Source of the DNA: Candidatus Saccharimonadota bacterium
Lineage (GTDB): Bacteria > Patescibacteriota > Gracilibacteria > BD1-5 > UBA6164
Assembly (NCBI GenBank): GCA_965227835.1
Contig: OZ245768.1
Location: forward strand, 1 to 32,000
Direction: 5' to 3'
DNA: 32,000 nt
The notes under the pieces were generated by a model. That model did not search any database. It saw only the letters and a program-made list of their open reading frames with translations, and was not told the origin of the DNA. This document shows, in pieces, positions 2,852-32,000 of the stretch (position 1 is the stretch's first letter; each line of letters starts with the position of its first letter). The translations under genes were made by a program, and so were the position numbers.

Positions 2852-2882
2852 CTTAATATTAATTTCCTAAACAAAAACAAAT

Positions 2883-6114: not shown

Positions 6115-6165
6115 ATCCTACATTTATTTTACCCGAATTTTTTAAAAAATACTTTTCAAAAAATT

Positions 6166-6849: not shown

Positions 6850-6961
6850 AGTTATTTTTATTAATATGGTATAAATTGTCATTTGTCCCTAAATGAGAAA
6901 TTATTCTCAAAAAGGGTATATGATAGGTTAATTTTTTTAAACTTTCAAAAAGGAGATTAGA

Positions 6962-7396
6962 ATGAAAATTCTTGTTCTTTTATTTGCAACTTTTATTGGT
7001 ATTATCTTGGGAAAATATTTTCTCACAGACAATGATATTGTAAACAATAATACTACTAATTATAAGGGCATTCCCCAAATTATTACTTTAGATGTTGCTA
7101 ACATGCTTAATAACTACTTCAATTGTAAGTCTGATTCATATTCTAATGAATTTCACCTTGAAGGAAGTAAGTATGGCATGTTATACCCTAATGGTGAAAT
7201 TCAATATTCATTAATCCTTGTTCCTAAAAACTCATTAACTTCTTCTTTAAAAGAAAATAATGTTTCGATATTTTCTGATGATTATACTTTTACTGAAATA
7301 CACCCTTTAACAATGGTTGCAATTGATTATAATTATATCAAATATAAATTTTGGGTTTCAAATAGAAGTCATGAATTAATCTGTTCAGAAATTTAG
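6962..7396 (+). CDS. Small membrane-anchored/secreted protein, 144 aa, no TGA codons
   Basis: Intact in the standard-code track. SD aaaggag lies 6 nt upstream, with an N-terminal hydrophobic anchor MKILVLLFATFIGIILG. A GC-rich terminator follows. Confidence 0.75.
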   Translation: MKILVLLFATFIGIILGKYFLTDNDIVNNNTTNYKGIPQIITLDVANMLNNYFNCKSDSYSNEFHLEGSKYGMLYPNGEIQYSLILVPKNSLTSSLKENNVSIFSDDYTFTEIHPLTMVAIDYNYIKYKFWVSNRSHELICSEI

Positions 7397-7411
7397 CCCA
7401 AATATAGCTTT

Positions 7412-7436
7412 AAAGCCCGAGCTTAGCTCGGGCTTT
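7412..7436. terminator. Bidirectional intrinsic terminator (aaagcccgagc-tta-gctcgggcttt)
   Basis: Perfect 11-bp GC-rich stem flanked by A/T runs, between the convergent genes 6962-7396 (+) and 7440-7823 (-). Confidence 0.8.
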
Positions 7437-7439
7437 AAA

Positions 7440-7823
7440 TTACCCGATTTTTTTGAAACTACTTTTTAGGTTTTTGAGTTCATCAAAATTTATCTTTGGC
7501 ACTTTCTTGGAAAAAGAAAAACTAGAACCACAACCACATCTATCTTTTACTTCTTTTGAAGAAAATATATATCTGAGTTTCTCTTTTCATGTATGGTCAG
7601 CTATTACAACCCTTGTTATAATTGAGTTTTCAAATTTATCCTTTTCCTCTTTGTTTGTATAAATTTCAATTCAATCTTGGTCTTTTATAAAAACAAGCTC
7701 TTTAACATTAGGAGATTCTTCTATATCAACTTTGGTTCCAGAACATCAAGCATCATAAAAAAATATTTTAATACTTTTGGTTCATTTTTGTTTCAAAGAA
7801 TTTATAGTGTTTTTATCAAGCAT
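7440..7823 (-). CDS. sufA: A-type Fe-S carrier (SufA/IscA/ErpA, HesB family)
   Basis: ..FFYDAGCSGTKVD.. and C-terminal ..RCGCGSSFSF.. give the three conserved Cys of A-type carriers. 128 codons. Confidence 0.85.
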
Positions 7824-7834
7824 ATAAATTATAT

Positions 7835-9241
7835 TTAAAATCCTCATTCAAACTCCATAGCTATAAGCACATTCATTTCACTTGCATACTCCAAAGGTAG
7901 CTCTTTCATAATAGGAGATAAAAAACCATTTACTATCATGGCTATAGCCTTTTCTTCTTCTATACCTCTTGATTGAAGATAAAACAATTCTTCTTCACTT
8001 ATCTTTCAAGCAGAAGCTTCATGCCCGACTATAGAGTCACTATTTCAAACATCTATAATAGGAACTGTATCTGATACAGATTTTTCATCCAAAAGTAGAG
8101 CATCACAATCTATTTTTGCAAGGGCTCATTTAGCTTGTGGTTTTATATCTACAAGACCTCTGTAAGTAGAAATTCATCCTCATTTTGAAAGAGATTTTGA
8201 TAATATATTACTTGTAGTATTTTTTCAAATATGTATCACTTTAGAACCTATATCTTGGTTTTGTCTTGTATTTGCAAAAGCAAGTCAAAGCATATCTGTT
8301 TTACTATTATCTCATTTTAAAACAGAGCAAGGATAAAGCATGGTTATACCAGATCACATATTTCATCATACCCATTCCATGTAAGCATTTTCTTCTACTA
8401 TTGCTCTTTTAGTATTTAAATTATATGTATCTAAACTCCAATTTTCCACAGACGAATATCTCATCTTAGCATTTTTTCAAACATAAATTTCAACTCATCA
8501 AGCATGAAGAGAATTTTCGTCATATTTAGGTGCAGAACATCATTCTATATAATGTGCATCAGCTCCTTCTTCTACTATTATTATAGTATGTTCAAACTGA
8601 CCTCATTGTTTTTTGTTCATCCTAAAATATGATTGCAAAGGTTCTTCTACTTTAACTCATTTAGGAATATACATAAAAGTTCATCAACTCCATACTGCAT
8701 AGTGTAGGGAAGCGAATTTATGGTCTGTTATAGGAATTGATTTTGCAAAGTATTTTTTTACTAATTCGGGATACTTATGTAGTGCTATACTAGTATCTTC
8801 AAAAATTACTCAAGCATCCACCAATTCTTGTTTTAAAGAATGGTACACTACTTCACTATCATATTGGGCCCCTACTCAAGCTAAAGCTTTTTTCTCTGCT
8901 TCTGGTATACCTAATTTATCAAAAGTATTTTTTATATTTTCTGGTACATCATCCCAAGACTTTTTAGCTCCTGCTCATTCTGGTTTGGCATAATAATATA
9001 TTTCATCTAGATTTAGATTAGATAAATCAGGACCAAAAGAAGGCATATTTTTTTGTCTAAATGCTTCCAGCGCTTTTAATCTGAGATCAAGCATCCAGCT
9101 AGGTTCATTATTTGAGGAAGAGATTTGTCTTACAACTTCTTCGTTTATACCTTTTACTACTTTGTTTGAGTAAGATATATTTTCATCTTGGAAGTTCCAA
9201 GTATCTTTTATTGTAACTGATTGTTGTTTTATATTTGACAT
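7835..9241 (-). CDS. sufB: Fe-S cluster assembly protein SufB
   Basis: The N-terminus is track ORF 8975-9241. It continues through TGA as ..[39 protein letters not shown].. to the C-terminal ..[21 protein letters not shown]. 469 codons. Confidence 0.95.
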
Positions 9242-9294
9242 ATTAATTTATTTTAATATAATACTTTTAATAATTTTTTCCTGAATTAAACCCC

Positions 9295-10448
9295 GAAGTG
9301 CAATTTTTTAAATGAACTTAAAGAAGAAAATATAGCATTAAGAAATTTTTTATTTTTGAGATTATAAAAAATTTTATTATAATTCCAAATACAACATTAA
9401 GATTGTGAAAAGTGTGCTTGATTAGGGGAAATAAAACCAAGTATTTCTCTAGGAGTATTTGCTAATATATCGCAAATACTTTTTATTTTTTCATCACTTA
9501 CATAATCAAATATAGTTCATTTAGGAAAAAATCTCCTGATAATCCTATTTAAATTCTCAATACTTCACTTCTGCCAAGAAGAATAAGGCTCACAAAAGTA
9601 AGTATCTATTCATATATCATTTAATAAATAATGCTTAGCAAATTCCATTCAATTATCAAAAGTAACAGATTTAATTCATATATCATCTTTAACTCAAGCT
9701 ATTAGATTAATTATATTTTCACTTGATTTATCTTTTATTTTAAAGATTTTAGGTAACCTAGTCTTTCTATCAACCAATGTAAGTATAGCTCATTTAAATC
9801 ATTTTTTAGAAACAATTAAATCAGCTTCAATATGTCATTTTTCTTCTCTGTTATTTATTGTTTCAGGTCTATCTTTAATACTAACTCTATTTTTAATTTT
9901 CACTCTTTCTGTTTGTTGTTTTTTCTTTCTATAACCTTTATGTTTATATAATAATAGTTCTTTATATTTATTTCACATACCAGTTTCTAGCCAAGAATAT
10001 ATACTTGTATGGGAGATATGTTTCTTTTTATCTGTTTGAGTATTATTCCGTTTCTTAGCAATTGTTTTTGGGGACATTTGTATTTCTGTTATTGATAGTT
10101 GTTCTATTATGAAATTTTTCATATTAGTATTCATATTTATCTTCATTGATTGAGTTTTTGTTAGCCATCGTCTTTGATATGATTTGATTTCTGCTTCTAG
10201 TGCTAAATATACTTTTTTATTGTTTCATCGTTTTTTTACTGAATTTCTGTATATCTCTCTGCTTATTGTTGATTCTGATCTTTTTAGTATTGATGCTATA
10301 TCTTTTTTCTTTAATCATTTATTTAAATGAAATTCAATACTTTCTCTCTCTTGGAATATTAATTGTCAGTACATATCTTATTATATTAGAAAATAATGTT
10401 ATTACCCTACGGGGAATACTATATTTTCTTCTCTTTTAATTGCACTTC
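9295..10448 (-). mobile_element. IS30-family insertion sequence (~1.15 kb)
   Basis: Terminal inverted repeats gaagtgcaatt at 9295-9305 and 10438-10448. Subterminal repeats a(a/g)agaagaaaatatag(c/t)att sit inside both ends, enclosing one intact transposase gene. Confidence 0.85.
9397..10374 (-). CDS. IS30-family DDE transposase
   Basis: HTH ..SILKRSESTISREIYRN.., then ..GHIEADLIV.., ..VTFDNGMEF.. and ..PYSSWQKGSIENLNRIIRRFFPKGT... 326 codons, with catalytic-region Gly encoded by TGA. Confidence 0.92.
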
Positions 10449-10471
10449 ATTTCTTACTTTGGGGAGAGATT

Positions 10472-11581: not shown

Positions 11582-12541
11582 ATGGAAAAATTAAGTAAAT
11601 ATGCTTGATATGAAGAAAATGAAAGAACTTCCCAGTTTTATGATAGATTAAAAGAATGAAATGAGGCTTTTGATTTATTTTTTAAAAACATTTTTGAATT
11701 TGATTATAGAGATAGTTCTGATTTTCGTTCTCTTGAAGCTATTATAAAACAAAAAATAGGTTATTTTCTTTTTGATTCTTTTGAATCTAGTGATAAAGAG
11801 AATTTAGGAGATTTACTATTAGAAAATAGGGAAGTTTTTTCTTATCGTCCTTACTTTGATATAGATGAGGTTTTAGATGAAATTTGAAAAGAAAATTTAC
11901 AGAAAAAAGAAGATTTTTTGGAAAGTGTAAGGGATAAAATTATTTATATGATATCAATTTCTTTTTATATAAATAAAAATTTCAGAGTAATTAAATATCA
12001 AGAATTACAGAACAGAGTTTCTTGTTGCTTAGATGGAACTTTTGATAAATTTACACCCGAAGAAGAAGGAGAAATACTATATATTTACGAGAAAGAAAGA
12101 AAAAGATATAAAAAGAAAAGATTGTACTATCTTGAGAAGCAAATGGATATAGATAAAGCTAAGGTGCAACTGGAAAGAATGTATTCTGATAATAATAATA
12201 ATGAAAATATTAGGGGGCATTTATTCAGAGCTTCTACATCTTCTAATCCTTATGAAATAGAAAATTGAAAATTTTGCGAAGAGGCAATTGGAGGTATTTA
12301 CGGAGAAGATAGTGATGAAAAAGTTTTCCTACCAGATTATTTGAACTCAAAAGTAATTTTAGAATATGTTATAAGTGGATTACCACAAGATGTGAAATCA
12401 GAAATAATAGGTAGGTATGAAAAAAGAATAAATGAGTTTCTATATAAATTACATGATATAGTTAGTGATGTTAAAAACAGAACATCAAATATAATAGATA
12501 TAAACAAGAATCAAGCTTTTTTTAGGACTATGTCCCATTAA
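11582..12541 (+). CDS. Hypothetical 319-aa cytoplasmic protein
   Basis: Table-25 ORF joining track ORFs 11918-12268 and 12341-12541 in one frame across TGA codons. No family recognised. Confidence 0.75.
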
Positions 12542-15259: not shown

Positions 15260-15435
15260 AAAATTTAATTTAAGATCAATGAACATCTGCAAAATTAATC
15301 TTTTTTGCTAATTTTCACCAGGGAAATTTTTGGCTTAGAATAACTAAACAAAAAAGTTTATTCGTAAAAATTACCTAAAAAATCTCTACTTTTTTCATAA
15401 CGAAGTAACTCTGCGGACGTTCCTCAATTTATTTT

Positions 15436-15801
15436 TTATCTGCTATATGCATATTTAACATTATCTCTTATAACTATGAAATCAGGAGAATCTGTTTCTT
15501 CCATCCTATTTTTAACTTCAGACTTATTTATAGTATCCAAACTTTCTATATCAGATATTTTTACCTCCAATGTTTCTTTTTGTAAAAGCAAATTTTGTTT
15601 TTCTCTTTCTAAATATCTTATTTCATATCATTGAGTTGCTCATGTATTTAGTGACCATATCAAATATATAAAAGATATTGATATAAAGGCTATTAAGTAG
15701 TTAAAAGTCGAGTTTATTCAAAAAACTATATCATCTTTTTTTTTCTTCCTATTTGAAAATACTTGTTTTCTAAGACTAGGAACTATTATTTTTTTATTCA
15801 T
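15436..15801 (-). CDS. ftsL: FtsL-like cell division protein
   Basis: Basic N-terminus, a single TM (FNYLIAFISISFIYLIWSL), then a coiled coil (YEIRYLEREKQNLLLQKETLEVKISDIE). Lies directly downstream of rsmH, as in dcw clusters. Confidence 0.55.
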
Positions 15802-15829
15802 ATTATTTAAAATAATTTTAATTCTTTAT

Positions 15830-16807
<978 letters not shown>

Positions 16808-17063
16808 TTTTGTTAAAATAATGTTAATTTCTTATTTTAATCCTGTAAAAATAGCAAAATCTTGTATATATTTAATGATTTTTGTTTTTGTGTCAAAAAT
16901 AAAATAAAATAAATATATAGACAAAATTTATTAAAATAGTTTAGCTTAAAATAAACTATAAAATTTTGTTTTTAACACTATTTTAACATTGCTGTTTTCA
17001 ATTAAGATCTGAAGAGTTCTCCTAACTTTGTAAAATAACAATCTGAATTCTATCCAAATAAAA

Positions 17064-17083
17064 AAGAGCTAGGAGCTCTTTGC
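17064..17083 (+). repeat. Hairpin motif copy 4 (aagagctaggagctctttgc)
   Basis: GAGCT-agg-AGCTC stem followed by TTTGC, the same core and 3' tail as copy 1. Lies in the rsmH upstream region. Confidence 0.45.
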
Positions 17084-17177
17084 TTTGGAATTTGTATGGT
17101 TAAGATAAAAAAATTAAATAAATTTACCTACTTTTTAGATGATTAAAATTAATTAATTTAATATGGATATTTTTATT

Positions 17178-17394
17178 ACTCAAAACTACCCACTTTTTAT
17201 AAAAAGTATACCTATATTTTACTTTAAATAAAGGGAAATTAAGCTATTTTTAGTGTTTTATCTTTAGTATTTTATAAATGACTTATTTAAGCTAACTTTA
17301 TCTTTATAAAATTCAATCAATATAAAATCTCTGTTTTTACTTATATAAAGGTAAAAAATAAAATATAAAATACAAAAAACTGAGTAGATTTGAG
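17178..17394 (+). mobile_element. MITE-like 217-bp element, copy L
   Basis: 214 bp match the reverse complement of 30739-30952 with 2 mismatches. The element has its own ~20-bp terminal inverted repeats (actcaaaactacccac.. / ..ctgagtagatttgagt). No ORF. Confidence 0.6.
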
Positions 17395-17398
17395 TTAT

Positions 17399-17549
17399 TA
17401 TAGTAAACTAACTTGTAAGTTAGACTATTTTAAAATGCAATTTTAATTGAAAAGGCAATTTTTATTTTTAGCAGACAGAGAGCTTTAGCCCTTTGATATT
17501 GTAAGAAGTTTCTATTTTTGAAAGGAGGATACCTAGTTAGTTTACTATA
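17399..17549 (+). other. Possible structured element: 15-bp inverted repeat enclosing hairpin motif copy 3
   Basis: tatagtaaactaact (17399-17413) is the exact reverse complement of agttagtttactata (17535-17549). The 121 nt between them hold motif copy 3 (17475-17522) and aaaggagg. Confidence 0.4.
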
Positions 17550-17629
17550 CTTCTGTTTTTTTAAATCACTTTTTTATTGTTTTTTCATCAATATTACAAA
17601 GACTGTATATTTTTAATAATCAAGAAATT

Positions 17630-18388
17630 TTAAAAATGTTTTTTGTAATAGTTTTTGAAATATTCTAGATTTTGTAATATTTTCTCGTTGGTTCATACTC
17701 ATAATTCTCTAGGAGAAATTTCAAGAGTTATAAATCATCCATAAGAACTAGCTTTTAGCTTCATTAAAAAACTTTCAAGAGGTAAATAAGATGTTCATCA
17801 TCATGCTTGTCATGGTAGTAATCCTTTTTTAGGACCACGAGTGTCAGAAAATGATATATTTTTTATACTGCTTCAAAGCACTTTTTGTACTTTCAAAATA
17901 TCACTTCAACTGGAAGGTGATACTGCAGAAATATTCAAAACAGTGTCTCATGTAACATTTTTGATCTGCATCAAAGTTGCATCTTTGTACTCTGGAATTA
18001 TAAAAAAAGCAAACTTAGGTTCTACATTTTCTATAGAAATAGACAAATGAGTATCTCTTTTTATTTTATTTAGATACCTTAAATACCATCCTACATTTCT
18101 GTCTCTATAATGAGGGGGAGTAAAGCTTATATTTTGAGTCCCTAATTTTATAGCTAGTCATACTATATCATCAACAACCTTTTCAGTTATTCATCTTTTT
18201 GGTGCTTTTATTGATAAAACAGGAATATTAAATTCTTTTGATAAAGAGTAAACATAATCTTTATCCCAATAATCATAGTTTTTCTTTGATAGAATTAATT
18301 CAATTCAGTCATATTTTGAATCTCTTGCAAACTGGAAAATTCTATGTAATCCATATCATTCAAAACTTATAGTTGATAGTAGTAACAT
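17630..18388 (-). CDS. Sugar phosphate isomerase/epimerase-like TIM-barrel protein (xylose isomerase-like fold)
   Basis: Codon-by-codon translation gives 252 aa: ..ARDSKYDGIELIL.., ..HLSISIENVEP.., ..SFSDTRG.., ..GFITLEISPREL.., the pattern of the AP-endonuclease-2/xylose-isomerase-like family. Confidence 0.7.
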
Positions 18389-18474
18389 TTTTATAAATCA
18401 TTAATTGATAAACCTTTATATAATATTAACATAAAAGATTTATATATGCAAAATAATTAAATAGTATTTTTACT

Positions 18475-19332
18475 TTAATATCATTTAATCTCAAAATATT
18501 CTCCATTTTTAAGTATTATATATACTTTTCAGGAGTTTAAATATATTTTTTCTATGGTATCTTTGCTACTTTTTATCAAGCTTTTTTTCTTAGTTTTTTT
18601 GTCGTATGATACTATCAAATCTCAATTAATATTTTCAAAAGAATGATTTATTTTTCTTTTTTTATCATCATTTTTTATTACTCAAATATAAAAATCTCAA
18701 ACATCTACATAATCATTAAAAATAGAAAAATAATCTATGTTTTTATTTATTAAATTAAATCTAAATGTTCAAAGATCAGATACTATTCATAATCTGTCTT
18801 CTCATAAACTTTTTATATATATTATCTTAGGTTTAAAAGATGTAGTGAAAATATTATTATTATATAAATTTTTTATATAAAGATTATCCTTTACCTTATA
18901 ATATATGTAGTTGTCTTTACCATATATTTCTTCAAAAACTAAATTTTTATTAGCTTTTTTTAATAAATTTTCTTCTATTTTGTTTTTTAAAGGTTTATTT
19001 GAAGTTTCTATTTTTATTTCTTTTTCTAAGTCTATTTTTATATTATCAATTTTTCTTAAATTTATATTTACTTTGTATTCTTTATATCCTTTCTTTTTTA
19101 TATAAAGCTTGTATTCAAAGGGAGGGATATTTTCTATTTCACATTTTTTTTCTCAGCAAAAAAACTCTTTTTTAAATTTATTATTTTCTAGATTTCAAAA
19201 AAAATTCTTCCTGTTAGATTCTATAACAAATGTTTTAAGTTTAATTTCAAAAAAGTATTTATAAAATCAAAATCAAAATATGATAAATCATAAAATTATT
19301 AAAATTCAAATAGTTCTGTTTGATAAGTTCAT
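18475..19332 (-). CDS. Membrane-anchored hypothetical protein, 285 aa (possible PEGA-like beta domain)
   Basis: N-terminal TM TIGILIILGFIIFGFGFYKYFF, then ..CEIENIPPFEYKLYIKKKGYKEYKVNINL.., which weakly resembles a PEGA domain. 286 codons. Confidence 0.65.
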
Positions 19333-19360
19333 TTGATTGTTTATTTATTATAAATAAAAT

Positions 19361-20188
19361 TTATTTTATTCATGCAGATTTTAGTACATTTTTCATAAGC
19401 ATTGCCACAGTTAATGCTCCTACACCTCATGGAACAGGGGTTATTTTTCATCATTTTTCGTGTATTTTTTTTGTTTGTGCATCTCAATAAATTTTTCAGT
19501 TTTTTACACTAAATCATACATCTATAACTATAGTGTTTTCCCTTATCATAGAGCTTTTTAATAAATTTGATTTTCAAACAGCTACTATTATTATATCTGA
19601 TTTTAGAGTTATTTCTTTTAGTTTTTTTGTCTTGCTGTTACAAATAGTAACTGTTGCTTGTCTATTTATAAGTAAACTAGATATTGGCTTTCAAACTATG
19701 TTGCTTCTTCAAATTACAGCTATATTCTTTCAGGCAATTTTAATTTTTTTTCTATTTAGTATTTCTACAATTCAAGCTGGGGTACAAGGTATAAATCAAG
19801 AATTATCTCACAAAACTAGTTTTCATTGGTTTATGGGGTGAAATCAGTCTATATCTTTCAAAGGATTTATGGAGTTTAGAATTTTTGTTGAGTCTATATT
19901 TTTTGGTAGAGGCATTTGTACTATAAATCAATTTATTTCGAGAGATTTATTGAGTTCATTTATTATTGATAATAACTCTTCTGTGCTAGTATTTTCTCAA
20001 AGTTTTTTTAATTTAAAATTTACTCATATATACTCTGCCCATTTTCTTTTTTGGTTTATATATCTTAAAGATTCTTGATTATCTCATACTAAAATTACTC
20101 ATATGCTTACTTTTCTCCTAGAATCCTTTAGTTTTTCTTTTAATTCCTCATATATATCTAGTGCTATTTTAGTTCAATTTAAAATCAT
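19361..20188 (-). CDS. folD: Bifunctional methylenetetrahydrofolate dehydrogenase/cyclohydrolase
   Basis: ..GVILVGDNQES..YINQKRK..GFIVQMPLP..DGFHPINQGKL..FIPCTPAGIVEIL..AVIGRSNIVGKP..PVPGGVGALTVAML... 276 codons. Confidence 0.95.
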
Positions 20189-20273
20189 TTTTTTTTACTA
20201 ATATTAATTTTATATAAATTTTAATGACTAAGTATTTTTTGCAAAATAATTTTTTGCATTACTTTTTTCAATT

Positions 20274-20304
20274 AAAAAAATGCCAGTTAATTAGGCATTT
20301 TTTT
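20274..20304. terminator. Bidirectional intrinsic terminator (aaaaaaatgcc..ggcattttttt)
   Basis: Stem aatgcc/ggcatt with A-run and T-run flanks, between the stop of the surface protein gene and the folD start. Confidence 0.6.
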
Positions 20305-20322
20305 AAGGAGGCTTATTTTTTC

Positions 20323-21225
20323 TTACGACTTTCTCTTCTTAAAATATATTAATGAAGAAAACAGGACAGCAGTTAATATTAGTATCCAAGTTTCAGTTCA
20401 AGTGTCTGGTACTTTAGCAGAATTTAAAGCTACCTCATCTATTTTTTCTCATATTTCTTCTTCCTCTAAACTAGGTATTTCAAGATCTTCTTCAGAGATA
20501 GTTTGTGTCATAAAATCATATATAGAGTTTGTAATTGAGTAGTTATTTCATTCTTGTGTAGAAAGACCAAACATCATAACTATATATTTTGAATTTTCAT
20601 TTAAACTATTTTCTAAATATACATTTAGCTCTTTTTTATTTTCATTATTTATTCTATATGCTGTTTCTTTTATTCATTTTAACAGTTTAACTTCAATAGA
20701 TTCTCAGTCCACCGGTTGTGTAAAATAAATATCTAAATTTTTTTCATCAAGTATTACTATTTTTTCTATTCCTTGTGAATAACCTCAAATTATTTCTAAT
20801 CAAGCAATTTCATCTTCTATTTCAAAATCTATTGTTCATTCTGCTCCTACTACTGATAATAAACTGTAAGAAGAGTAAGAGGATAAACTATTTTCTAATA
20901 CCAAATTTACTAATTTATTGTCTTCTAAGTCTAGGGATATATTTTTATTTTCTAAATCTTTAAATATTTTAATGTCTGGATAAACATCTTGATTTCCGGT
21001 TTCTATATCTTTATCAAAAAATATTTTCAGTAAGTTAGAATTTTGAGAATTTATATCAATTATTGATGCTTCTATATCATTTTTTTCTTCTTCATCTAAA
21101 TATTCTCCCTTTAGATTGTCTTCACTTATAATTTCATTTTCCGTTTCTTCATAAATATTTATATCATTTTCAGCTGATACTTGTAGTGTTAAAAGCATTA
21201 AAATACTTAGAAGTGCTAGTTTCAT
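20323..21225 (-). CDS. Acidic surface protein with signal peptide and LPXTG-like C-terminal sorting signal
   Basis: MKLALLSILMLLTLQVSAE signal peptide. C-terminus ..KVPDTGTETWILILTAVLFSSLIYFKKRKS has a sortase-type motif, a hydrophobic helix and a basic tail. Extends track ORF 20836-21255 through TGA. Confidence 0.75.
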
Positions 21226-21288
21226 AATTTTTAATTTAATTTTAATTTTTATCATTATATTTATATTAAAAAAATCTCAAAATTAACT

Positions 21289-22620
21289 TTATAAATTTTT
21301 TGTGAGAGAAACTATATTTTTTTCAAGGTCAGATACATTTTTCAGTTTTATAAGTTCTATATTACTTTTCAAGTTGCAGTCTGCTAGAAATATTTTTTTA
21401 AATCCCATTTTTTCAGCTTCTTTTATTCTTTTTTCTATTTGTATAACTTTTTTTATATTTCATGTTAGAGATATTTCTCATATAAATACTATATCTTTGG
21501 GAATTACTTTATTTAGTTTACTGGAAATTATAGATGCTGCTATTGCTAAATCAATTCAAGGTTCTGATATTTTTAATCATCTCGATATGTTTGTATATAC
21601 ATCATAAGATTCTAGAGATATTTTAGTATATTTTGATAAAACAGCTATTATCAAATCTAGTTTTGAGCTGTTTATTCATCTTGCACTTCTTTTGGGATAT
21701 CAAAACTTGGTATATGTTGTGAGTCATTCTGTTTCTACCACCAATGTTTTTGTTCATTCTACAGTTATGCTTAGACTTGATCATATAGTATTTTTGGAGT
21801 CACTTATAAACTCCAAACTTGGATTTTTTAAATCTTTTAATCACTCTTCTTCCATTTTGAATATTCATATTTCACTTGTATTACCAAATCTGTTTTTAAG
21901 TGTTTTGAGTATTCTTAGATTATCATATTTTTCTCATTCTAGATATAATACTGTATCAACCATATGTTCCAAAGTTTTTGGTCAGGCTATGTCTCAGTCT
22001 TTGTTTACGTGTCATATTATAAAAAGAGATGTATTTGTATTTTTGGCATATGTTACTAGTAGTTCTGTTATATATTTTATTTGACTTATGCTTCAAGATA
22101 TACTTGATATATTTGAAGAGTGCATTACTGAAATAGAGTCTATTATTGCTATATCACATTTATTTTTACTTAGAGTTTCTATTATGTTTTCTATATTTCT
22201 TTCAGATAGTAGTTCTATATTTTCTCAATATATGTTTAGTCTTTTTGCTCTTGAACTTACTTGATTTATAGTTTCTTCTCATGATATATATATTGTTTTT
22301 TTATCAGCTACCCAACTAGCTATTTGAAGGGTGATTGTGGATTTTCATATTCATGGTTCTCATGTTATAAAACTTACTCATCATGGTGTTATTCATCATC
22401 ACAACACATTATTTAATTCTTGAGAGCTTGTTTTTATTTTATAGTTTGTCTTTTCATTTTGTATTTCAGATATTTTTTTTAGTTCTTTTATTTCTGCCTT
22501 TTTTCAATTGCTTGTTACATCTGGTTTTTTAAATTCTTTTAGTGTAGACCAAGATTTACAAAATAGGCATTGTCATGACCATTTCAAGCTTTCATTTCAG
22601 CATTCACTGCATATATACAT
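21289..22620 (-). CDS. radA: DNA repair protein RadA/Sms
   Basis: Zn-finger CSECG..CLFC, Walker A ITGEPGIGKSTITLQ, KNRFG motif, and a Lon-protease-like C-terminal domain. 444 codons. Confidence 0.95.
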
Positions 22621-22788
22621 ACTAGATTTTTATTTATAAAATTTATTTTAGTGTATAAATAGTATATAAAAAGTAAAATTTTTTTTGACGGATAGTGAGA
22701 AAGCTCATTAACATATAATGCATTAGGAAATAAAATAAACATTATGTAATCAAATGTTTAATTCTCATGCTAAATACCAATAATTATT

Positions 22789-22900
22789 TTTTTTAATTTA
22801 TAAATATCAAAAAAGAGAGAAATAAATTTCTCTCTTTTTTTAAATTCATTGTTTCAAATGGCTAAAGCCATCTGTTGCCAAAAAGATTATTTTTTTCTGA
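22789..22900 (+). repeat. Direct repeat A (112 bp) containing a terminator hairpin
   Basis: Matches 27902-28012 with one T/C substitution and one T indel. Contains aaaaaagagagaaat..atttctctctttttt (22809-22841) and the small hairpin atggc-taaa-gccat. Confidence 0.9.
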
Positions 22901-22983
22901 TTTTTATTCAAGAATTTCCCTGGTTAAAATTTATAAAAAAGGTTATTTTTTCATAGAAGTTAATTTTCAAATATCTTTTTAAA

Positions 22984-23919
22984 CTAATCTCATCATAATA
23001 AATCACTAATTTTATCTAACATCCAGTTTTTTGTCTTTTCAACTTTCAGACTACTTGAAGCTTGTTCTCTAGTTTCTTTTTGATTTTGCAATAGAGTGTC
23101 TCTTTTTTCTATTGCTTTAATACATAGGTTGTAAATTTCTATAGTAATTAAAGGTTTTCATTCAGTAGGATTTAAATATTCGTCTAATTCTTGTTTTGTT
23201 ACTTCGAGTCACATTCTTACTCATTGGGCATTTTCATAAAATCTAGTATCTAAACATTGATTTGGTAGTTCTATTATAGCTCTTCTTAATAACATTCTCA
23301 CATCATCTTCTTCAGGAATATATCATTTTCAAGCAAAATACACTATGTCTTTTATTCTTATTGCTCAAGAAGCTATGGAAGCTTTTAAGGACATTATATC
23401 TATTGTAACTTTATCTCATTTTCATTCTTTTATAGATTTTATTACTCAATAATGAATCCATAAATTTTGATAAAAATTTATTTTGTTAATTGCTAAAATA
23501 AAATTTGGATTTATCTCTCAGTTCTCTAAATATACTTTTATTTCTTTTCAGTTTTTAAAAATAGATTTTCATTTTAATTCAAATCAAGCTTCTTTTGCAT
23601 GTGTACTAGCATGTTCATCTTCAAAAGCTGATAATAATCAATTTAAAAACTCTAATCAATTATTTTCTGAGTATATATATAAATTTCACCTCAGATTTTC
23701 ATTTAGTATTATTGCTATATCATCTACAACTCATATTTTTAATTCATTAAATTCTTCAATGCTTATATCTAAATCTCCTTTAATTAAACTTCTAATCTTA
23801 TTTTCTCTTTCTATTTTATTTTCTATAGCACTATCAAAAAAACCTTGAGCTGTTTTTTCTTCTCAAGATGTTCTTACTTCATAGTAAGTTTGATTATTTA
23901 ATTCTATTCAAGTATCCAT
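22984..23919 (-). CDS. Cassette gene C: orphan 311-aa protein
   Basis: Uninterrupted table-25 ORF (ATG 23919, TAG 22984-22986), 25 nt after gene B. No family recognised. Confidence 0.7.
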
Positions 23920-23944
23920 AAATATTATTTTATAATTAAATATT

Positions 23945-26494
23945 TTATTCTTGGTTTGTTTGTCTTTTAAATCCAGGAGTGTAATTAATAGAAGTTCTAT
24001 TTTGTATTGATTCTAGATATTTTTTTACCCCTTCAACATCTTTTATCTTTAATATCCAGTTAATATTTCATAAACTCATCTGTATTTCATCAATTCTTCC
24101 TCAAGATTCACTTATTTCAATAAGTTTATTAAATTCTGCCATTCTCTGTAGCTTATAATTTCTCACATATTTTATATCTTCTATAGTGTTTACTCTTATT
24201 CATAAAGCTTCCAGTTCAGTAATCCTTTGTTCTATTTTATCATTAATGAGTGATTCTGCTTCTAATTTTAAATTTAATATATTTTCGTTTGTAGAAATAA
24301 GACTTTGAAATTCAGAATCAATTTTGGAATCCAAACCTCAAAATCATTTCATTAAGTTTTCTATATTTCATGAAAGTACATCTTTAATTTCTAAATTAAC
24401 TCCTCACTCTGATTCAGGATAATTAGAAGATTTTGTATTTGTACTTTTGTTACCAACTTTGGTTCTTATAACACTAGAACTATTATTTATTAATAATAAT
24501 TCTTTAGGATTGTATCATAGTTTTACCAAAAATAAAAGCCCTAAATTGGATAATATATTTTCAGGAGCCTGTCAGTTTTCAAATATATTATCCCCATAGA
24601 ACATATTTTGTGATAAAAATTCTATACCAGTAAATGCTCATAATTCTACTGAATTGTTTATAGTCTTTCAAGAAAGTTTTGAACTATCTACTCACATTTT
24701 ATTTAAAAATGGGTATGTATGCTTCATAACACTAAATAAACCTGCTCATGCTATGGATCATGCAAGAAAATCTTTTAGTGTATATCATTCAAAAGTTCCT
24801 CTTGATTGTCTTGTTCTATTTATTAATTCAAAAGACGTTCATTCTAAAAAATCTACTCATAAAGCTCATTTAAAAGTAGCTTGTTTTATTCAAAAAATAA
24901 ATTTAGATATTCTTCATATTACAAAAGCTGTTAAAGGTATAGATATTACTTCTTCTAATAGTATATTCTTTGTATTTATGCTTAGGTTAAATACTTCATT
25001 TGTTGGATCAAATAAATCTTTATATTGTTCTATTAATTCTTTTTTTTCTCAGGTTATCTTTCATAGTTTAATTTTTGATTCAAGATTTTTGAATATGTCA
25101 TATTCAAGTTCTTGTTCTAATTCTAATTTAGTGAGTATTCTTGCTCTTATTTCTATTTCTTCTTCTGATATATCAGGCATCTTTTCTCTAATAATTTCTT
25201 TATTTTTACTTACTTTTTCCTCTATATCTATATTCCCTTTACTTATTATTTCTCACAGTACCATTTCATATTCTCAACTAAAAGTATTTGTGAGTTTATA
25301 TTTTAAGGAATAAAGAAAAGAAGGACTTTTAAATCTTAAATCAGGATTTGTTATTGGATTATCTGTACTTATGTCTACAAATCATTTAATTGCCTCAGTA
25401 TATATTTGTTCATTTGTTCATTCTATATTTACTGAACTCAACACTCTTGTAAAACTGTTAAATCTTTCAGTAATTCTTTTTATATGATTATTATTTAGTC
25501 TTATGATATTTTCATAGTTATCGGGTATTGGTCATCAATGCCTAGCTGGATTTTTTTTATTTACCCAGTCTTTGATTTTTCAATGAAATTTTTGAGATTT
25601 TTCTTCTAATTTATCAATTATTTGTTCTCCAGATAATTCTTTATTTTCAAAAATTTTTTCAATATTTCTTTTGAAACTATCATAAAGTTCTTTTTCTCAA
25701 TCAAGATAAGAAATACTGTCATCTAAGTTTATAACTTCAAAACTATCCAATACTATAAATACTGCTTGTTTTATTCTCAATGCTTTCATTTTTTCAGAGT
25801 CTTCTATTATTGAAGCAAATTCTATTGCATTTATCATAGCCTCTACTATTGGTTTTTTATCAGTAGGGATATCTAAATCTTGTATACTCTTATCTTCATC
25901 TCTTAAATATTTTAAAGCTCCTTTTAAATCTCCATTACTTAAATGTAATTTTAACCCTGGAAAGATTTGTAATAATAAATTAGAATTATCAGTTATTTGA
26001 TTAATATATTCTCTGTCAATTCATTCTTCTTCTAATTTTAGAGTAAGCATTTGAGCTATATTAATTCAAGTATTAATTGTTTCATATTCATTTTCGAGTA
26101 CAGTATGACCTATTCAATCTAAATATGTTGTTCTAAGTTGTCAGTCTCAACCTACTGATAATTTACTCCTTTCAGATTCACTAAAAGTACTAAGAAAAGC
26201 CTCTTGTGTTTTATCTCACCAGCTTCCATCTATCTCTCAATCATATCCTCACATTATTTTTATTATTATTTGAATACATTTAGTTTCAAAATAATTACTT
26301 CTATCTATTTCTCATTCTCTTATTATTACCTCTTTCATTTTAAGCGCAAATTCTTGATGACTCTCATCTGAATCTAATTCTTCTTTTATAATTTCTGGTG
26401 GAGTAATATCAAAATTAGCAGAACACTCATTTACTAGTTCTACTAATGATTTTTGTCATTCTTGCTGTTCATTTATTCTTTGTATTTCAGTCAT
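23945..26494 (-). CDS. Cassette gene B: orphan 849-aa protein with PG-binding-like motif, Gly-rich hydrophobic block and coiled coils
   Basis: 850 codons from ATG 26494 to TAA 23945-23947. Contains ..IQIIIKIMGGYDGEIDGSWGDKTQEAFLSTF..GGDGQLRTTYLDGI.. (PG_binding_1-like). About four hydrophobic Gly-rich helices lie near residues 560-700, with a heptad-like C-terminus. Confidence 0.75.
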
Positions 26495-26497
26495 ATT

Positions 26498-26782
26498 TTA
26501 TATATTATTTATTTCTAACTCAATATCTTTGAAATCTTTTTCTTTTTCTAATATTTCTTGTTTTTTTATGTTTATAATACTATTTCTAGCTTCAATTAAG
26601 TTATTTATACTGTTTTTATCTTTTGCACTTTTACTTGCTGTATTTAAAAAAGAAATTATGGTATCAACATAGCTTTCTTTAAATGATTTAGTATTGTATA
26701 ATCAAATAGCTAATTCTCACGCTAAATCCCATGAATTAGTTTCTTTTAATTTTATCAATATATTTAATAATTCCTGCTTCAT
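26498..26782 (-). CDS. Cassette gene A: small helical 94-aa protein
   Basis: Strong SD aaaggag lies 7 nt upstream of ATG 26782. The stop is 3 nt before the gene B start, suggesting translational coupling. Confidence 0.6.
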
Positions 26783-26818
26783 TTTCTTCTCCTTTGAATT
26801 AATTATTTGTTTTTTATA

Positions 26819-26848
26819 ATTTTAGCATATTTTTTGAAATTTTTGCAA
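26819..26848 (-). promoter_or_regulatory. Sigma70-like promoter for the cassette operon (TTGCAA-18 nt-TAAAAT)
   Basis: On the minus strand, TTGCAA is at 26843-26848 and TAAAAT at 26819-26824. It lies between the IS982 end and gene A. Confidence 0.4.
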
Positions 26849-26857
26849 ATATACTAC

Positions 26858-27872
26858 TAATGTGAATCTCGTTAGGCAAGAGATTTGTATTTAGAGGTAG
26901 AATCAAAGAATTTTTTTAGCTGATAAGCAGTTAAACATAATACATAATGAGAGAAATATCAAATTTCAGATCTAGCCAAAGAAGTTTCCATTCACATACG
27001 ATGTTTCAAAACAGAAAAAACAATCTCCACTCTCTGTCTCATTTTTAAAATTTGATGTTGAACCTTTGTCATTAATTTCTTCATATTTGCTTTTACTGCT
27101 GTAAATAAATGTTTTCCATTTTCTCTAGCCTTATCCTCCCAATTCTTTCATATGTATCAAGCATCAGCTACAATCATTCAAAATATATCTTTCCACATCA
27201 TTTCCATTCATCTTCTATCATCCATATTTCAAGATGTAATTCTAAAATTTAATATCTCCATATATTCATTACATATTATATGTAATTTAAATCAGTAAAA
27301 CCATCACATACTGCTTTTTCATTTATTAGATATCCTCTTAGATACTTTATGATTAAACTCTCTCTTTATTTTACATACTTCTAGTTTTGATGAGTCAACA
27401 AATTTTAACATATTCTCACCTGTATTTTCCTTGAAGATTTTCATAAAATATCATAATAACACAAGAGATAGAAAGGATATTTTATTTATTCACGATTTAA
27501 AGTTTTGATAATTTGGGAGATTTGGAAAATCTTTTTTATGGTATGTATTTATGAATTTGTAGTATGATTTCCAGTTGTCTTGTCATGAGAAAAATTTAAA
27601 TATTCATAGTGTTAGTAATTCTGCTAATTCTAGTTTAAATTTCTTACTTGGGGGTCTTTTGTTATTTGGTCTTTCTAAACAAAATTTTAAGTCTTTTAAT
27701 ATATTTTTTATAAAATCTGATACAAAGTCGTATATTGTTATTAAAATTATTATTAAATTTTCATCTTTCATATATAATTAATTTAAGATTATAAAGTATG
27801 TTAAAAAAATCACTCTATAATCTTATTTATTCCCTAGAATAAAACAGGTTTTGCCTAACGAGATTCACATTA
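26858..27872 (-). mobile_element. IS982-family insertion sequence (~1.0 kb)
   Basis: Perfect 22-bp terminal inverted repeats taatgtgaatctcgttaggcaa at 26858-26879 and 27851-27872 (reverse complement), enclosing one intact transposase gene. Confidence 0.9.
26872..27771 (-). CDS. IS982-family DDE transposase
   Basis: ..KFVDSSKLEVCK..GWFYGFKLHII..IVADAGYIG..RQRVEIVFSVLKHRMG.. are the IS982 signatures. 300 codons, with the stop inside the left IR. Confidence 0.92.
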
Positions 27873-27901
27873 ATAATATCAATTACATCATCTATTAACT
27901 G

Positions 27902-28012
27902 TTTTTTAATTTATAAATATCAAAAAAGAGAGAAATAAATTTCTCTCTTTTTTTAAATTCACTGTTTCAAATGGCTAAAGCCATCTGTTGCCAAAAAGAT
28001 TATTTTTTCTGA
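27902..28012 (+). repeat. Direct repeat B (111 bp)
   Basis: Partner of 22789-22900. The terminator hairpin is at 27922-27954. Confidence 0.9.
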
Positions 28013-28030
28013 AGAATGTTAATCTTTTAA

Positions 28031-28525
28031 GGCTCTCTTTTAGATTTTAATTTTCGGCATAATAGTAAAAAATGTGTGGCTAAAAATCCTATATTGGAAG
28101 CTAATAAAGAATTGAAGAAAATATGAGAATTACTTACTTGTACTGATAAAGAAACTTTTGAATATGAATTAGAAAAATATTATTTTAAATATGAGAGTTT
28201 TTTAAAAGAAAGAAAGTTAAATAAAAAATGAAAACTAGAATATATTCACAAGAGAACAAGATCTGCTTATTTTTCTTTAAAAAGAAATTTGAAATATTTA
28301 TTTACTTGGTATGATTATTATTGAAAGCTGGATATACCAAATACAACAAATGCTCTAGAATGAGTTTTTGGTCATTTAAAAGTTAAGGTTAGTCTTCATA
28401 GAGGATTAAAAAAACAGAGAAAAATTAAATTAATTTTAGCTCTCATACATGGGAAAAACTAACTTAACCAGCCACACACTTTTTACAATTAAACCTAATT
28501 TTCTAGTTTCTGCTTTATAACCTAA
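28031..28525 (+). pseudogene. Transposase C-terminal fragment (DDE family uncertain), no start codon
   Basis: Open frame ..IHKRTRSAYFSLKRNLKYLFTWYDYYGKLDIPNTTNALEGVFGHLKVKVSLHRGLKKQRK.. has a TNxxEG-type last catalytic motif. There is no in-frame ATG before the conserved part. Confidence 0.55.
28065..28485 (+). mobile_element. Internally deleted IS remnant (~420 bp) with 17-bp terminal inverted repeats
   Basis: gtaaaaaatgtgtggct (28065-28081) versus agccacacactttttac (28469-28485), one mismatch. The interior holds only the C-terminal part of a transposase. Confidence 0.6.
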
Positions 28526-28537
28526 CAAAAAAAGGTT

Positions 28538-28720
28538 TTACCCTTTTTTTATTTCTTTCATTTTTAGTACTTCGTGTTTTCTTGTTTTTTTATTGTATTT
28601 TCTCAAGTTTGGTCATTTTACTCAATTTTCAAAATTCTTTTTTTGTATATTTGTAGAATGTACCATATTTCCTGTATCTGTAGAATAAAATGCTACATAG
28701 GTTCTTTTTCCTTTTGCCAT
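28538..28720 (-). CDS. rpmG: 50S ribosomal protein L33 (Cys-less form)
   Basis: MAKGKRTYVAFYSTDTGNMVHSTNIQKKNFENGVKGPNLRKYNKKTRKHEVLKMKEIKKG follows the L33 pattern (..Y.T.KN..N....L.L.KY....RKH..HKE.K). Confidence 0.8.
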
Positions 28721-28814
28721 TTTTTGAATAATTAATTATATATATTTTTTACGATTTTGGATTATATAAAAAAACTATATGTAAGCAAATTTTTTCAATT
28801 TTATAAATTGTCAT

Positions 28815-30524
28815 CTATTCTACAATTGTTTTATCTAAATCCATTCATGCAGGAACCATGGGGAATACATTTTCTTCTTTTTTAACTTTGTACCATATAA
28901 GACTTGGTCATTTTTCTCAATAAATTTCTTTAGAATACCTTTCCATTTGCTCACTGCTTTCTATTTTATATCACTTTATTCAATAAGATTCAGCTATTTT
29001 CATATAATCCGGTGATGAAATATCAACATTACTTCTTGTATTTTCATCAAACATATCCTGCCATTGTCTAACCATTCATAAATAAGAGTTATCAATTATA
29101 ACTATTTTTATATTTAGTTTAGGATACTGTTTCAACAATACTGTTAATTCTGGTAAATTCATTTGAAATCATCAATCTCCAGATATAGAAATTACTTGTT
29201 TTCAAGGGTTAGCTATTGCTGCTCATATAGCACTTGGTAGAGAAAATCACATAGTTCATAATCACGAACTTGAAAGCCAGTTTTTAGGATCTTTTATATC
29301 AAGTATTTGAGCTGCCCACATTTGATGCTGTCAAACATCAACGGTGTATATACAATTTTTTTCAGCATATTTATTTATAGAATTTAGTACCTGTTTTGTT
29401 CAAAATATATTTTCTTCTATTATGTATGGCTTCTCTTTCTGCCATTTTTTTATTTGTTTAATCCAAGATTCTATATCCAGTTTAGGGTTTTCTCATAGAT
29501 TTTTAGAAAATATATCTATAAAATTTTCAGCATCAGATCTAATAGATAGATTTGTTGAAACAAGTCTTCAAAGTTCTTTGTCATCTATATCTATATGTAC
29601 CACTTTTTTGTTTTTTCAAAAATTTGTGTAGGTTCAAACTATACGATCATCAAATCTAGATCATATATTTATTAAAAGATCAGAATTATGTACTGCCATA
29701 TTTGCATGATAGAATCAGTGCATTCAAAGCATTCACAATATATTCTCATCTTTATCATCAACTACTCATTTTGCAAGTAAAGTATATACCGTGGGGATAT
29801 TTAGTTTTCCTATAAGCTTTTTTATTTTTTGTGGGGCTTTTCAGTATTTGGTTCATTGTCATATAAGAAGTATAGGTCTTTTCGATTCTCATATTAATTT
29901 TTTTAATTCCTCCATTTTTTCAGGAGATATTTCGTCATTTTTCGTATGTTCAAATTTATTTATATAGTATGAGTCTATACTTGGAAACTCAAAACTTTCT
30001 GGATGTTGTGTTAAAAGTACATCTTTGGGTATATCTAAGTGTACTGGTCAGGGCCTTCAGCTTACAAGTATATTTAAGGCTTTCACTACTTCATAAACTA
30101 CTTTGTTTGGGTCATCGATTAATTTAAAATATTTTGATATGTGTTTTGATATTCAAACGGCATTTATTTCTTGAAATGCATTCTTTCATATCATATGACG
30201 AGGTACTTGTCCTGAAACTACAAGCATAGGTATTGAATCCATATAAGCATCTCCTAGTGGTGTTACTACATTTGTGAATCAAGGTCATGATGTAACTAGA
30301 GTTAGTGCTTTTTTTCATGTTGATCTAGTATACCCTTGTGCCATAAACCCTGCTCATTGCTCACTTGCGGGGAGTATATGTTTTACTTTATCTTTAAATT
30401 TGTTTAAAGAGTTATACAGTGGTATAGCTGCTCATCAAGGATATCAGAAAATAGTATCTATGTTTCAATATTCTATTATCGTTTTCAATATTGCATCTGC
30501 GCATGTAAAATTTTTTTTGTTCAT
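28815..30524 (-). CDS. ilvB: Acetolactate synthase large subunit (ThDP/FAD-type AHAS)
   Basis: ..[109 protein letters not shown]... 570 codons. Confidence 0.93.
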
Positions 30525-30735: not shown

Positions 30736-30952
30736 CTTAAATCTACCCAGTTTTTTGTATTTTATAGTTTATTTTTTACCTTTATATAAGTAAAAACAGA
30801 GATTTTATATTGATTGAATTTTATAAAGATAAAGTTAGCTTAAATAAGTCATTTATAAAATACTAAAGATAAAACACTAAAAATAGCTTAATTTCCCTTT
30901 ATTTAAAGTAAAATATAGGTATACTTTTTATAAAAAGTGGGTAGTTTTGAGT
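30736..30952 (-). mobile_element. MITE-like 217-bp element, copy R (inverted relative to copy L)
   Basis: Reverse complement of 17178-17394. Flanked on both sides by ttttg, a possible 5-bp target duplication. Confidence 0.6.
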
Positions 30953-31079: not shown

Positions 31080-32000
31080 ATGGTTGAAAAAATAGAAATA
31101 GGTGGAGGTTCTATTGAGTCAAATTCAAGCAATAGAGTTGACACTTCAGTTAAAAGCGATGTAGAAGGTATTTTATGAAATAAAAACGAAATAAATACTT
31201 GTCTTACAAGTTATAGATTAAATCAAAATTTAAATAAAAAAAATTTTGATTTAATTTTTGAATCATTTTTAGAAAAAGCAAAAAGTGATGATAATTTTGC
31301 AGAAAATATAGTCCCAGCATTAATAAATACCTGAAATATATCAGAAGAAAAACTGAACTCTAGCTTTGATTTAATTTTAAGAGAATCAAAAAATAGAGAT
31401 AGTTGGTCAAGATATATATTTCCAGTATTAATAAAAACCTGAAAGATATCAGAGGATAAATTAAACTCTAATTTTGAGTCAGTTCTACAAGAAGCAAAGC
31501 ATAATACATATTTAGCAATATATGTAGTACCAGAATTAATAAATACATGAAGAATATCGGAAGAAAAATTAAGATTTTTAGATAATTTTTTTGATTTTGC
31601 TTTAAAAGAAGCAAGAACTAATCAGGACTTTGCAATATATATAATTCCAGCACTAATAAATACCTGAAAGATACCAGAAGAAAAGTTAAACTCTATTTTT
31701 GAATCATCTTTAAAAGAAGCAAGAATTAATAAGGACTTTGCAATATATATAATTCCAGCATTACTAAAAACCTGAAAAATATCAGAAGAAAAATTAAAAC
31801 TTCTAGATGATTTTTTTGATTTTGTTTTAGAAGAAACAAAAACAGATTATTATTGGACAATCTATATAGTTCCAGTATTAATAAATACCTGAAAGATATC
31901 AGAAAAGAAATTAAATTCCATTTTTGAATCATCTTTGAAAGAAGCAAGAATTAATGAAGATTGGGCAAAATATATAATTCCAGTATTAATAAAAACCTGA
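31080..32000 (+). CDS. Tandem-repeat protein, 5' part (runs off the window)
   Basis: Table-25 ORF from ATG 31080. It has at least 7 repeats of the type ..F(E/D)xxL(K/E)EA(R/K)xNxD(F/W)AIYIIPALINTGKISEEKL... Confidence 0.75.
31290..32000 (+). repeat. Coding tandem repeats with mixed 108- and 117-bp periods
   Basis: The ccag(c/t)attaataaa(t/a)acctgaaa landmark recurs at 31314, 31422, 31530, 31647, 31755, 31872 and 31980. Confidence 0.85.

Follow-up and report, generated by a model that had tools for sequence, protein, structure and literature searches.

A 32,000-nt stretch of contig OZ245768.1 from a Gracilibacteria genome (GenBank assembly GCA_965227835.1), referred to below as the window, carries three adjoining genes, A, B and C, which appear to constitute an undescribed three-gene operon family restricted to Gracilibacteria-type bacteria, in which TGA encodes glycine. 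The copy in the window lies between two near-identical direct repeats, R(A) and R(B), and the best explanation of its setting as a whole, which we hold with moderate confidence, is that it sits in a chromosome stretch recently reshuffled by insertion sequences (IS) and recombination. A preliminary description of this DNA had taken A, B and C for orphan genes. They are instead a conserved operon family, since the module of small gene, B and C was found in 11 other distinct Gracilibacteria-type contigs. The repeats, IS elements and rearrangements around them are ordinary; it is the gene family that is undescribed.

The A-B-C operon

The G+C content of the window is 24%, and the open reading frames (ORFs) called with genetic code table 11 are all short. 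Table 11 was of no use here and was replaced by ORF calling with TGA as a sense codon, the only setting in which the long genes, including A, B and C, emerge. The meaning of the codon can be read from the neighbouring radA gene (22620-21289, minus strand, 443 aa). The P-loop region of its product takes the form L-GGG-ITP-GG-V..T-G-EP-G-I-G-KST only with TGA as Gly, its Walker A region reads GGG..GEPGIGKST only under table 25, and an ilvB-type enzyme encoded nearby is likewise correct only with this assignment. Because TGA falls on conserved Gly positions of RadA, the source is a table-25 organism. In most genes, TGA accounts for 57-100% of the Gly codons.

The three genes are tightly packed on the minus strand. 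Gene A (26782-26498, 94 aa) is preceded by an AGGAG Shine-Dalgarno sequence, gene B (26494-23945, 849 aa) starts 3 nt past the A stop codon, and gene C (23919-22984, 311 aa) follows. Upstream of A, at 26849-26819 on the same strand, is a sigma-70-type promoter made of TTGCAA, a spacer of about 17-18 nt and TGcTAAAAT. The region has no general excess of promoter-like sites (56 versus 50 expected), but this one is kept at 85% identity in L013 (GCA_018654075.1), the closest relative of the window cassette (71-85% nucleotide identity). Repeat R(A) (22900-22789, minus strand, 112 nt), located 83 nt downstream of the C stop codon, contains a hairpin at 22840-22809 with a 14-bp stem (three G-C pairs) followed by TTTTTT. 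The conserved promoter, the packed genes and the R(A) terminator are shown together to make up one predicted transcription unit. The minus-strand operon with its own promoter, as given in the preliminary description, is thereby borne out, and all sequence-level statements of that description proved correct, with rpmG as the one weak annotation.

A conserved module in other genomes

The public protein records of the source genome, P0001 and P0002, are table-4 translations with Trp at every TGA, so that homologs escape word-based searches and structure predictions suffer. A word-indexed protein search with B returned P0001 alone, which is the same gene, from a 1,489,121-bp NCBI/ENA contig, in table-4 translation. 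A profile of concatenated A+B+C was dominated by low-complexity candidates and returned two proteins, and a two-sequence profile found nothing in a first scan of GTDB. Relatives of B were detected by an exhaustive HMMER search, namely P0004 (871 aa, 40% identity, E = 9e-133), P0007 (844 aa) and several fragments. The contigs encoding P0004 and P0007 have a 93-aa gene before B and a 330-364-aa gene after it, which in table-25 translation are homologs of A and C. Another contig, L001, encodes a relative of C with 40-47% identity, and the partial ORF upstream of it is the C-terminus of a B homolog. This 1,252-bp Logan contig has the same 30 nt at 1-30 and 1223-1252, so that B-C is either arranged in tandem or was artificially circularized by the assembly. 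Four further metagenome-assembled genomes (MAGs) from GTDB and three metagenome contigs came from scans with a C profile of four sequences. The GTDB MAGs that carry the module are labeled Candidatus Gracilibacteria, Patescibacteria or 'Peribacteria'.

The order A-B-C was seen in L002, L003 and L004, and every locus with enough sequence has the small gene followed by B (844-1046 aa) and C (304-364 aa). Homologs of the three genes thus co-occur elsewhere, a point that the preliminary description had listed as a check. According to local ORF calling, BLAST and hidden Markov model (HMM) searches, A, B and C are the only genes co-conserved across the loci; none of radA, rpmG and ilvB stands beside the module in any other locus, and flanking direct repeats were found at no other module copy. 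The operon is therefore conserved in relatives at other places, and not as a core locus at this position. The module occurs as two sub-types that differ in the small upstream protein. Homology between A of type 1 and the small protein of type 2 was considered and rejected (hhalign probability 0.6%).

No known family could be assigned. A, B and C had no significant match in Pfam, NCBIfam, PADLOC or PHROGs (the best E-values in PADLOC-DB were 0.017, 0.0073 and 0.027, over short stretches), and library scans of 8-10 members of the A, B and C families gave nothing significant in Pfam or NCBIfam. Sequence and profile searches of the PDB found no match for B, C or the C-family profile, and only insignificant ones for the C-terminal domain of B and the A family (best E 0.12-0.27). 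The earlier statement that A and C belong to no recognizable family agrees with these empty searches, and none of the three genes was placed in a housekeeping family. The C profile had no member among 2.9 million viral contigs, and tblastn with C and the core of B found no match among 50,697 phage genomes and 72,556 plasmids. A phage or plasmid origin was rejected on the basis of these collections.

Direct repeats and insertion sequences around the operon

R(A) and its partner R(B) (28012-27902, minus strand, 111 nt) are 99% identical over 107 nt of ungapped alignment. They differ by one substitution and one single-base indel, as had been described, and have sharp edges at both ends. R(B) contains a hairpin at 27953-27922 that is identical to the one in R(A), and these two, both on the minus strand, are the only terminator-like hairpins in 22400-28900, where 0.7 would be expected by chance; the earlier claim of a hairpin in each repeat therefore holds. 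Each R folds into three hairpins, with z = -4.7 and -5.9 versus shuffled sequence. Both copies have the stem-loop and T run of an intrinsic terminator, R(A) behind C and R(B) with no gene directly upstream. No further copy of R is present in the 32-kb window, and R had no match in viral contigs or in any fetched module locus.

R(B) lies in a 173-nt island (27880-28052) between two IS elements of different families. On its operon side is an IS982 element (27879-26851, minus strand, 1029 bp; transposase 27771-26872), whose transposase scores 184.1 bits against the cutoff of 130 for NCBIfam transpos_IS982 and 6.5e-43 for Pfam DDE_Tnp_1_3. With its 29-nt inverted repeats (26851-26879/27851-27879, 93% complementary), it is confirmed as the intact IS982 upstream of the promoter that had been reported. 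The insertion point is 1-2 nt upstream of the -35 hexamer, and the flanks of the element (...GCAAAT | IS | CAATTAC...) show no evident multi-base target duplication in this AT-rich sequence. The element shares with other IS982 members its DDE transposase, its terminal inverted repeats (29 nt) and a size of about 1 kb, and differs in that no clear target-site duplication is visible. It is a passenger beside the operon and not part of the function of the operon.

On the other side of R(B), at 28053-28498 on the plus strand, is an element of the IS256 family bounded by 29-nt inverted repeats (28053-28081/28470-28498). Its ORF (28076-28462, plus strand) encodes the C-terminal part, about 40%, of a transposase of the Zn-binding variant (model positions 178-298 of 304) and scores 129.9 bits, below the NCBIfam cutoff of 150, so that it is not full-length. 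By these features, the element is internally deleted by about 60% of the transposase and non-autonomous. The IS remnant noted outside R(B) in the preliminary description was thus correctly placed, and what had been called a remnant keeps both inverted repeats. Compared with the IS256 family, the transposase segment and the 29-nt ends are the same, and the difference lies in the deletion and in the position of the copy at a breakpoint between strains. A composite transposon was considered and rejected, as IS982 and the IS256-type element are not copies of one IS but members of two families, and they stand together on one side of A-B-C.

Comparison with a sister strain

A sister strain, L012 (ERZ25074195), was found through an exact look-up of the only TGA-free ORF of the window (6962-7396). 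It is represented by a 52-kb ENA contig that is 93-99.7% identical to the window at the nucleotide level. In L012, the equivalent of position ~15273, just past the rluD terminator, is joined directly to that of ~28512, just past rpmG. At that site L012 lacks the 13.25-kb block that separates these points in the window (15274-28512) and comprises ftsL, mraW, folD, radA, R(A), C, B, A, IS982, R(B) and the IS256-type element, and no match to R was found in L012. The outer end of the IS256-type element is about 12 nt from the right breakpoint, and the comparison shows this element to mark the junction of the block with rpmG.

R(B), enclosed by two IS elements at the margin of a large strain-specific block, is not the terminator native to rpmG. 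That the block was inserted into the rpmG terminator region or duplicates it, as proposed earlier, is contradicted, given that rluD abuts rpmG in L012 with no R and with the 13.25 kb absent. The empty site with a single repeat copy that the preliminary description had suggested looking for did not appear at the rluD-rpmG junction of L012 either: this junction lacks R, and what is missing is 13.25 kb and not 5.1 kb.

The housekeeping flanks had been given as radA, rpmG and ilvB. The identities of radA and of the ilvB-type thiamine pyrophosphate (TPP) enzyme (30524-28815, minus strand) are confirmed by Pfam. The divergent, bL33-like rpmG product (28720-28538, minus strand, 60 aa) is weakly supported; it had no match in Pfam or NCBIfam, and its sole PDB match is bL33, collinear over the full length with a weak E of 0.12. 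Beyond these genes, an ORF at 31080-32000 (plus strand), which leaves the window at its end, consists of tandem repeats of about 108 nt (36 aa) with 60-78% identity and units such as ..YIIPALINTGKISEEKLNS.FES.LKEA.., and has weak Pfam matches to DUF7650 and FF_PRPF40A below the gathering cutoffs.

Several other differences between the strains were observed. An IS30-family element (9281-10469; transposase 9397-10374, minus strand; NCBIfam 223 bits) between sufB and sufC is absent from L012, which has the uninterrupted site at 12319/12345 and thus provides a clean empty-site comparison. The segment 11536-12577, with an unannotated ORF of 319 aa (11582-12541), is a strain-specific indel absent from L012 (13410/13453). 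To the left of sufU there is no similarity between the window at 525-5716 (queA and unannotated genes) and L012 at 1-8002 (NAD-salvage genes). On the right, collinearity with L012 ends exactly at 30734, at the edge of a 217-nt non-coding element. This element is present in the window as inverted copies with 99% identity, 13.3 kb apart (17178-17394 and 30736-30952), and at a third, different place in L012 (8454-8680). It is probably a mobile repeat, like a miniature inverted-repeat transposable element (MITE), that marks rearrangement breakpoints. Collinear blocks between the window and L012 measure only 0.4-3.2 kb. In this two-strain comparison, IS elements and short repeats break synteny every few kb, and an apparent insertion next to a housekeeping gene in this organism should therefore be compared with a sister strain before it is taken for a cassette.

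Relics and a proposed history of the locus

Two relics in the window apparently record earlier rearrangements at this place. The first, A' (22726-22797, minus strand), is a decayed 5' fragment of A type (..YWYLAGELNIGLHN..) that directly adjoins R(A) at its 3' end, on the upstream side of radA, and reads ..KKNNYWYLAGELNIGLHN.. where A has ..KETNSWDLAGELAIGLYN... With an A-family HMM built without the A of the window, it ranked second among 1,211 window peptides (E = 0.024) at matching profile positions, and its nucleotide alignment score is 28 versus 14.5 ± 2.2 for shuffles. The second, s' (15277-15359, plus strand), is a diverged copy, in inverted orientation, of the C-R(A) spacer and the start of R. 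It lies just inside the left breakpoint of the 13.25-kb block and scores 36 versus 11.7 ± 1.9, a value reached by 0 of 1,000 shuffles. No relic of B or C type was found in the window. In the alignments, the 9-nt AAATTAAAA is common to the 3' end of R and to codons 11-13 of A, which points to a possible microhomology-mediated junction. The copies of R are 99% identical and A' is about 77% identical to A, so that the duplication or gene conversion of R must be much younger than the A' copy.

These observations suggest a history in which an older module, or part of one, would once have been present here. A recent recombination at R, by Campbell-type integration or unequal crossing-over, would have made the bracket around the operon, and the redundant older copy would then have been removed by a microhomology-mediated deletion.

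Another explanation is that IS982 and A-B-C form a discrete 5.1-kb mobile cassette that integrated at a resident R, with the copies of R being att-like and the cassette excisable by R x R recombination. We regard this as possible, though not likely. The near identity and sharp edges of the repeats, the lack of a clear target duplication at IS982 and the presence of the module at different sites in different genomes are all in its favor, and the abutment of R(A) on the diverged A', with the shared nonamer, agrees with the loss of a resident older copy by a subsequent deletion. However, the Pfam and NCBIfam scans found no integrase or recombinase inside the repeat-bounded block except for the IS982 transposase, the other module copies are without flanking repeats, and R(B), enclosed by IS elements at the block edge, cannot be taken for a resident terminator of rpmG.

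Accessory-like behaviour of the module

The neighbourhood of the module differs in each of the 12 distinct loci, including that of the window. In L007, the three genes stand alone between cysS and a penicillin-binding protein (PBP) gene, and L007 and L008 have no flanking gene in common at 80% identity of B. L005, L006 and L008 have large serine recombinases no more than about 1 kb away from the module. The regions concerned, all beside type-2 modules (L005 11096-18452, L006 3217-13360, L008 4137-5933), may be small integrative elements adjoining the module; a Rep_trans-like gene is present in L005 as well, and Replic_Relax-like and HerA/DUF87 genes are present in L006. A further gene of L005, some 1.2 kb upstream of the module, encodes a 675-aa methyl-accepting chemotaxis protein (3365-5392; Cache, HAMP and MCPsignal domains). 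This is unusual for the lineage, and either the contig may be chimeric or the gene may have been transferred.

Decay is evident in several copies, and B is damaged in three of the 12 distinct loci. The B gene of L011 is interrupted by an in-frame TAA stop codon, that of L013 has lost residues ~288-463 and the C-terminal domain, and that of L014, directly behind a PemK toxin gene, has a 5' truncation. In L013, A has also collapsed to a 22-codon ORF. The toxin gene of L014 (440-796, PemK/MazF-type) overlaps the start of the truncated B homolog. C is intact in L013 and wherever else it is fully covered. In the window, the GC content, GC3, codon usage and TGA share of Gly of A, B and C equal those of the neighbouring housekeeping genes, and this host-like composition gives no sign of recent foreign origin. 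We infer that A-B-C would be a dispensable, host-adapted accessory module and not a core gene set.

Several points weigh against this account of a reshuffled accessory operon. The strain comparison consists of one metagenome contig of low coverage (4.73x) at the rluD-rpmG site. A single duplication does not explain both the 99% identity of R and the ~77% identity of A'. R could be dispersed over the genome, with the two copies counted in the 32-kb window standing on either side of the operon only by chance. The differing neighbourhoods carry little weight, as the genomes compared are diverged (C 37-69% identical) and could simply have low synteny. In L005 and L006, where B is 84% identical, the common flanking genes are rearranged and about as diverged as the module, which fits vertical descent. 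Finally, a known fold in B or C could remain hidden, because the AlphaFold models were both unusable, with a predicted local distance difference test (pLDDT) score of 38-39; they were made from table-4 sequences with Trp for Gly and from two-sequence alignments.

The last but one of these points is shared by a reading of A-B-C as a housekeeping membrane complex that is specific to the lineage and inherited vertically, such as a scaffold of the envelope or of division, with the repeats and IS elements as incidental local damage. The gene order kept across deep divergence, the host-like codon usage and the solitary setting in L007 agree with it, and missing annotation is ordinary here, given that 4 of 10 neighbouring window proteins tested also lack a Pfam match. 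We nevertheless consider it doubtful. B is disrupted or truncated in 3 of 12 loci and A is collapsed in L013, only four GTDB species representatives matched the profile-derived patterns, many copies have recombinases, IS elements or toxin genes nearby, and two unrelated types of small upstream protein fill the first position.

Predicted properties of A, B and C

A is a small protein with a conserved WDLA..LA.G.YN motif. B has a Gly-rich hydrophobic core at about residues 505-665, with one or two clear transmembrane (TM)-like segments, and a conserved C-terminal domain of about 150 aa; it is predicted to be all-alpha by the low-confidence AlphaFold model, of which only the secondary structure was used. 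No hydrophobic TM-like segment was found in A or C. C is soluble and is the most conserved member, with 37-47% identity to its relatives. Its invariant block has the form ELPxQCxDxRF...VTKxEL...PxI...Y..C...I..RD, and the invariant residues include C222, D224, R226, K242, E244, C266, R273 and D274. A PD-(D/E)xK-like reading of C (D224...E239-x-x-K242) is no more than a lead, since the spacing is non-canonical and no test supported it. The conserved core of the module thus consists of the hydrophobic middle of B, its C-terminal ~150 aa and C. Some B homologs start with an EF-hand with a canonical DxNxDxxxxxxE loop (Pfam EF-hand_7, 1.7e-4, in two of eight members), which was also read by eye in the B of L002, L003 and L010; in the B of the window, the Pfam scan found no such loop.

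These features suggest a membrane-anchored α-helical complex. With low confidence, a bundle of Gly-rich helices could fix B in the cytoplasmic membrane, and the variable N-terminal half and conserved C-terminal domain of B would both lie on the cytoplasmic side. C may be a catalytic or ligand-binding partner, given its conservation and its invariant Cys, Asp, Arg, Glu and Lys residues. The small upstream protein could be an adaptor or a chaperone, and would be replaceable, as two unrelated types fill that position. The EF-hand of some B homologs hints at calcium control, which the B of the window would lack.

It has also been suggested, in the preliminary description, that the genes are an accessory system of undescribed type, such as a phage-derived or defence module. 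The accessory-like and family-less character stands, but the labels of phage and defence are without support from PADLOC, PHROGs and the viral and phage searches. An anti-phage or anti-mobile-element defence module of the abortive-infection type, with B as a putative membrane effector, would account for the island-like, variable distribution beside recombinases, IS elements and a toxin-antitoxin gene, for the large size and membrane-inserting core of B and for the frequent decay. We consider it improbable, because the PADLOC matches are not significant (best E 0.007-0.03 on short stretches) and the Pfam and NCBIfam scans of the module revealed no nuclease, ATPase, TIR or other defence domain. 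A prophage remnant with genes for a chaperone, a tape-measure-like and a distal-tail-like protein is scarcely credible: the sizes of ~90, ~850 and ~310 aa and the Gly-rich hydrophobic core of B presumably resemble those of tail tape-measure modules, but there is no PHROG match, no C-family member among the viral contigs, no tblastn match in the phage genomes and no other phage gene beside any of the 12 loci, where the neighbours are housekeeping genes, recombinases or unannotated.

Relation to known systems and implications

The unit in the window is probably an IS-scarred accessory operon islet. It resembles the genomic islets of IS-rich hot spots in being a self-contained operon with its own promoter and terminator, with repeats and IS elements at its flanks, a variable position and decayed copies. 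It differs from them in its cargo, which has no known accessory function and a fully host-like composition, and in its direct repeats, which are terminator elements and not att sites or IS copies.

Gracilibacteria are episymbiotic or predatory bacteria of the Candidate Phyla Radiation (CPR). As judged from its predicted features, A-B-C could be a new membrane-associated system of TGA-recoded Gracilibacteria, perhaps for conflict or host interaction, with B as a calcium-responsive effector or scaffold and C as a new enzyme fold with a Cys/Asp/Arg/Glu/Lys cluster, which would be gained, moved and lost by recombination at its flanks. We put this forward only tentatively.

Small modules of mostly hypothetical protein families have been described as typical of Gracilibacteria and Absconditabacteria (Jaffe et al. 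2021, PMC8406219). A-B-C is like those modules in being a small, lineage-restricted set of co-occurring unannotated proteins in TGA-recoded CPR bacteria. As far as our searches show, the gene order, promoter and decay pattern of A-B-C are described here for the first time, and the family may overlap with the modules listed there.

If A-B-C is a real functional system, it would be a conserved yet dispensable membrane module present only in a recoded, largely uncultured lineage. Little is understood of how these bacteria live by attaching to other cells or preying on them, and the operon would then offer a defined target for structure prediction and expression studies.

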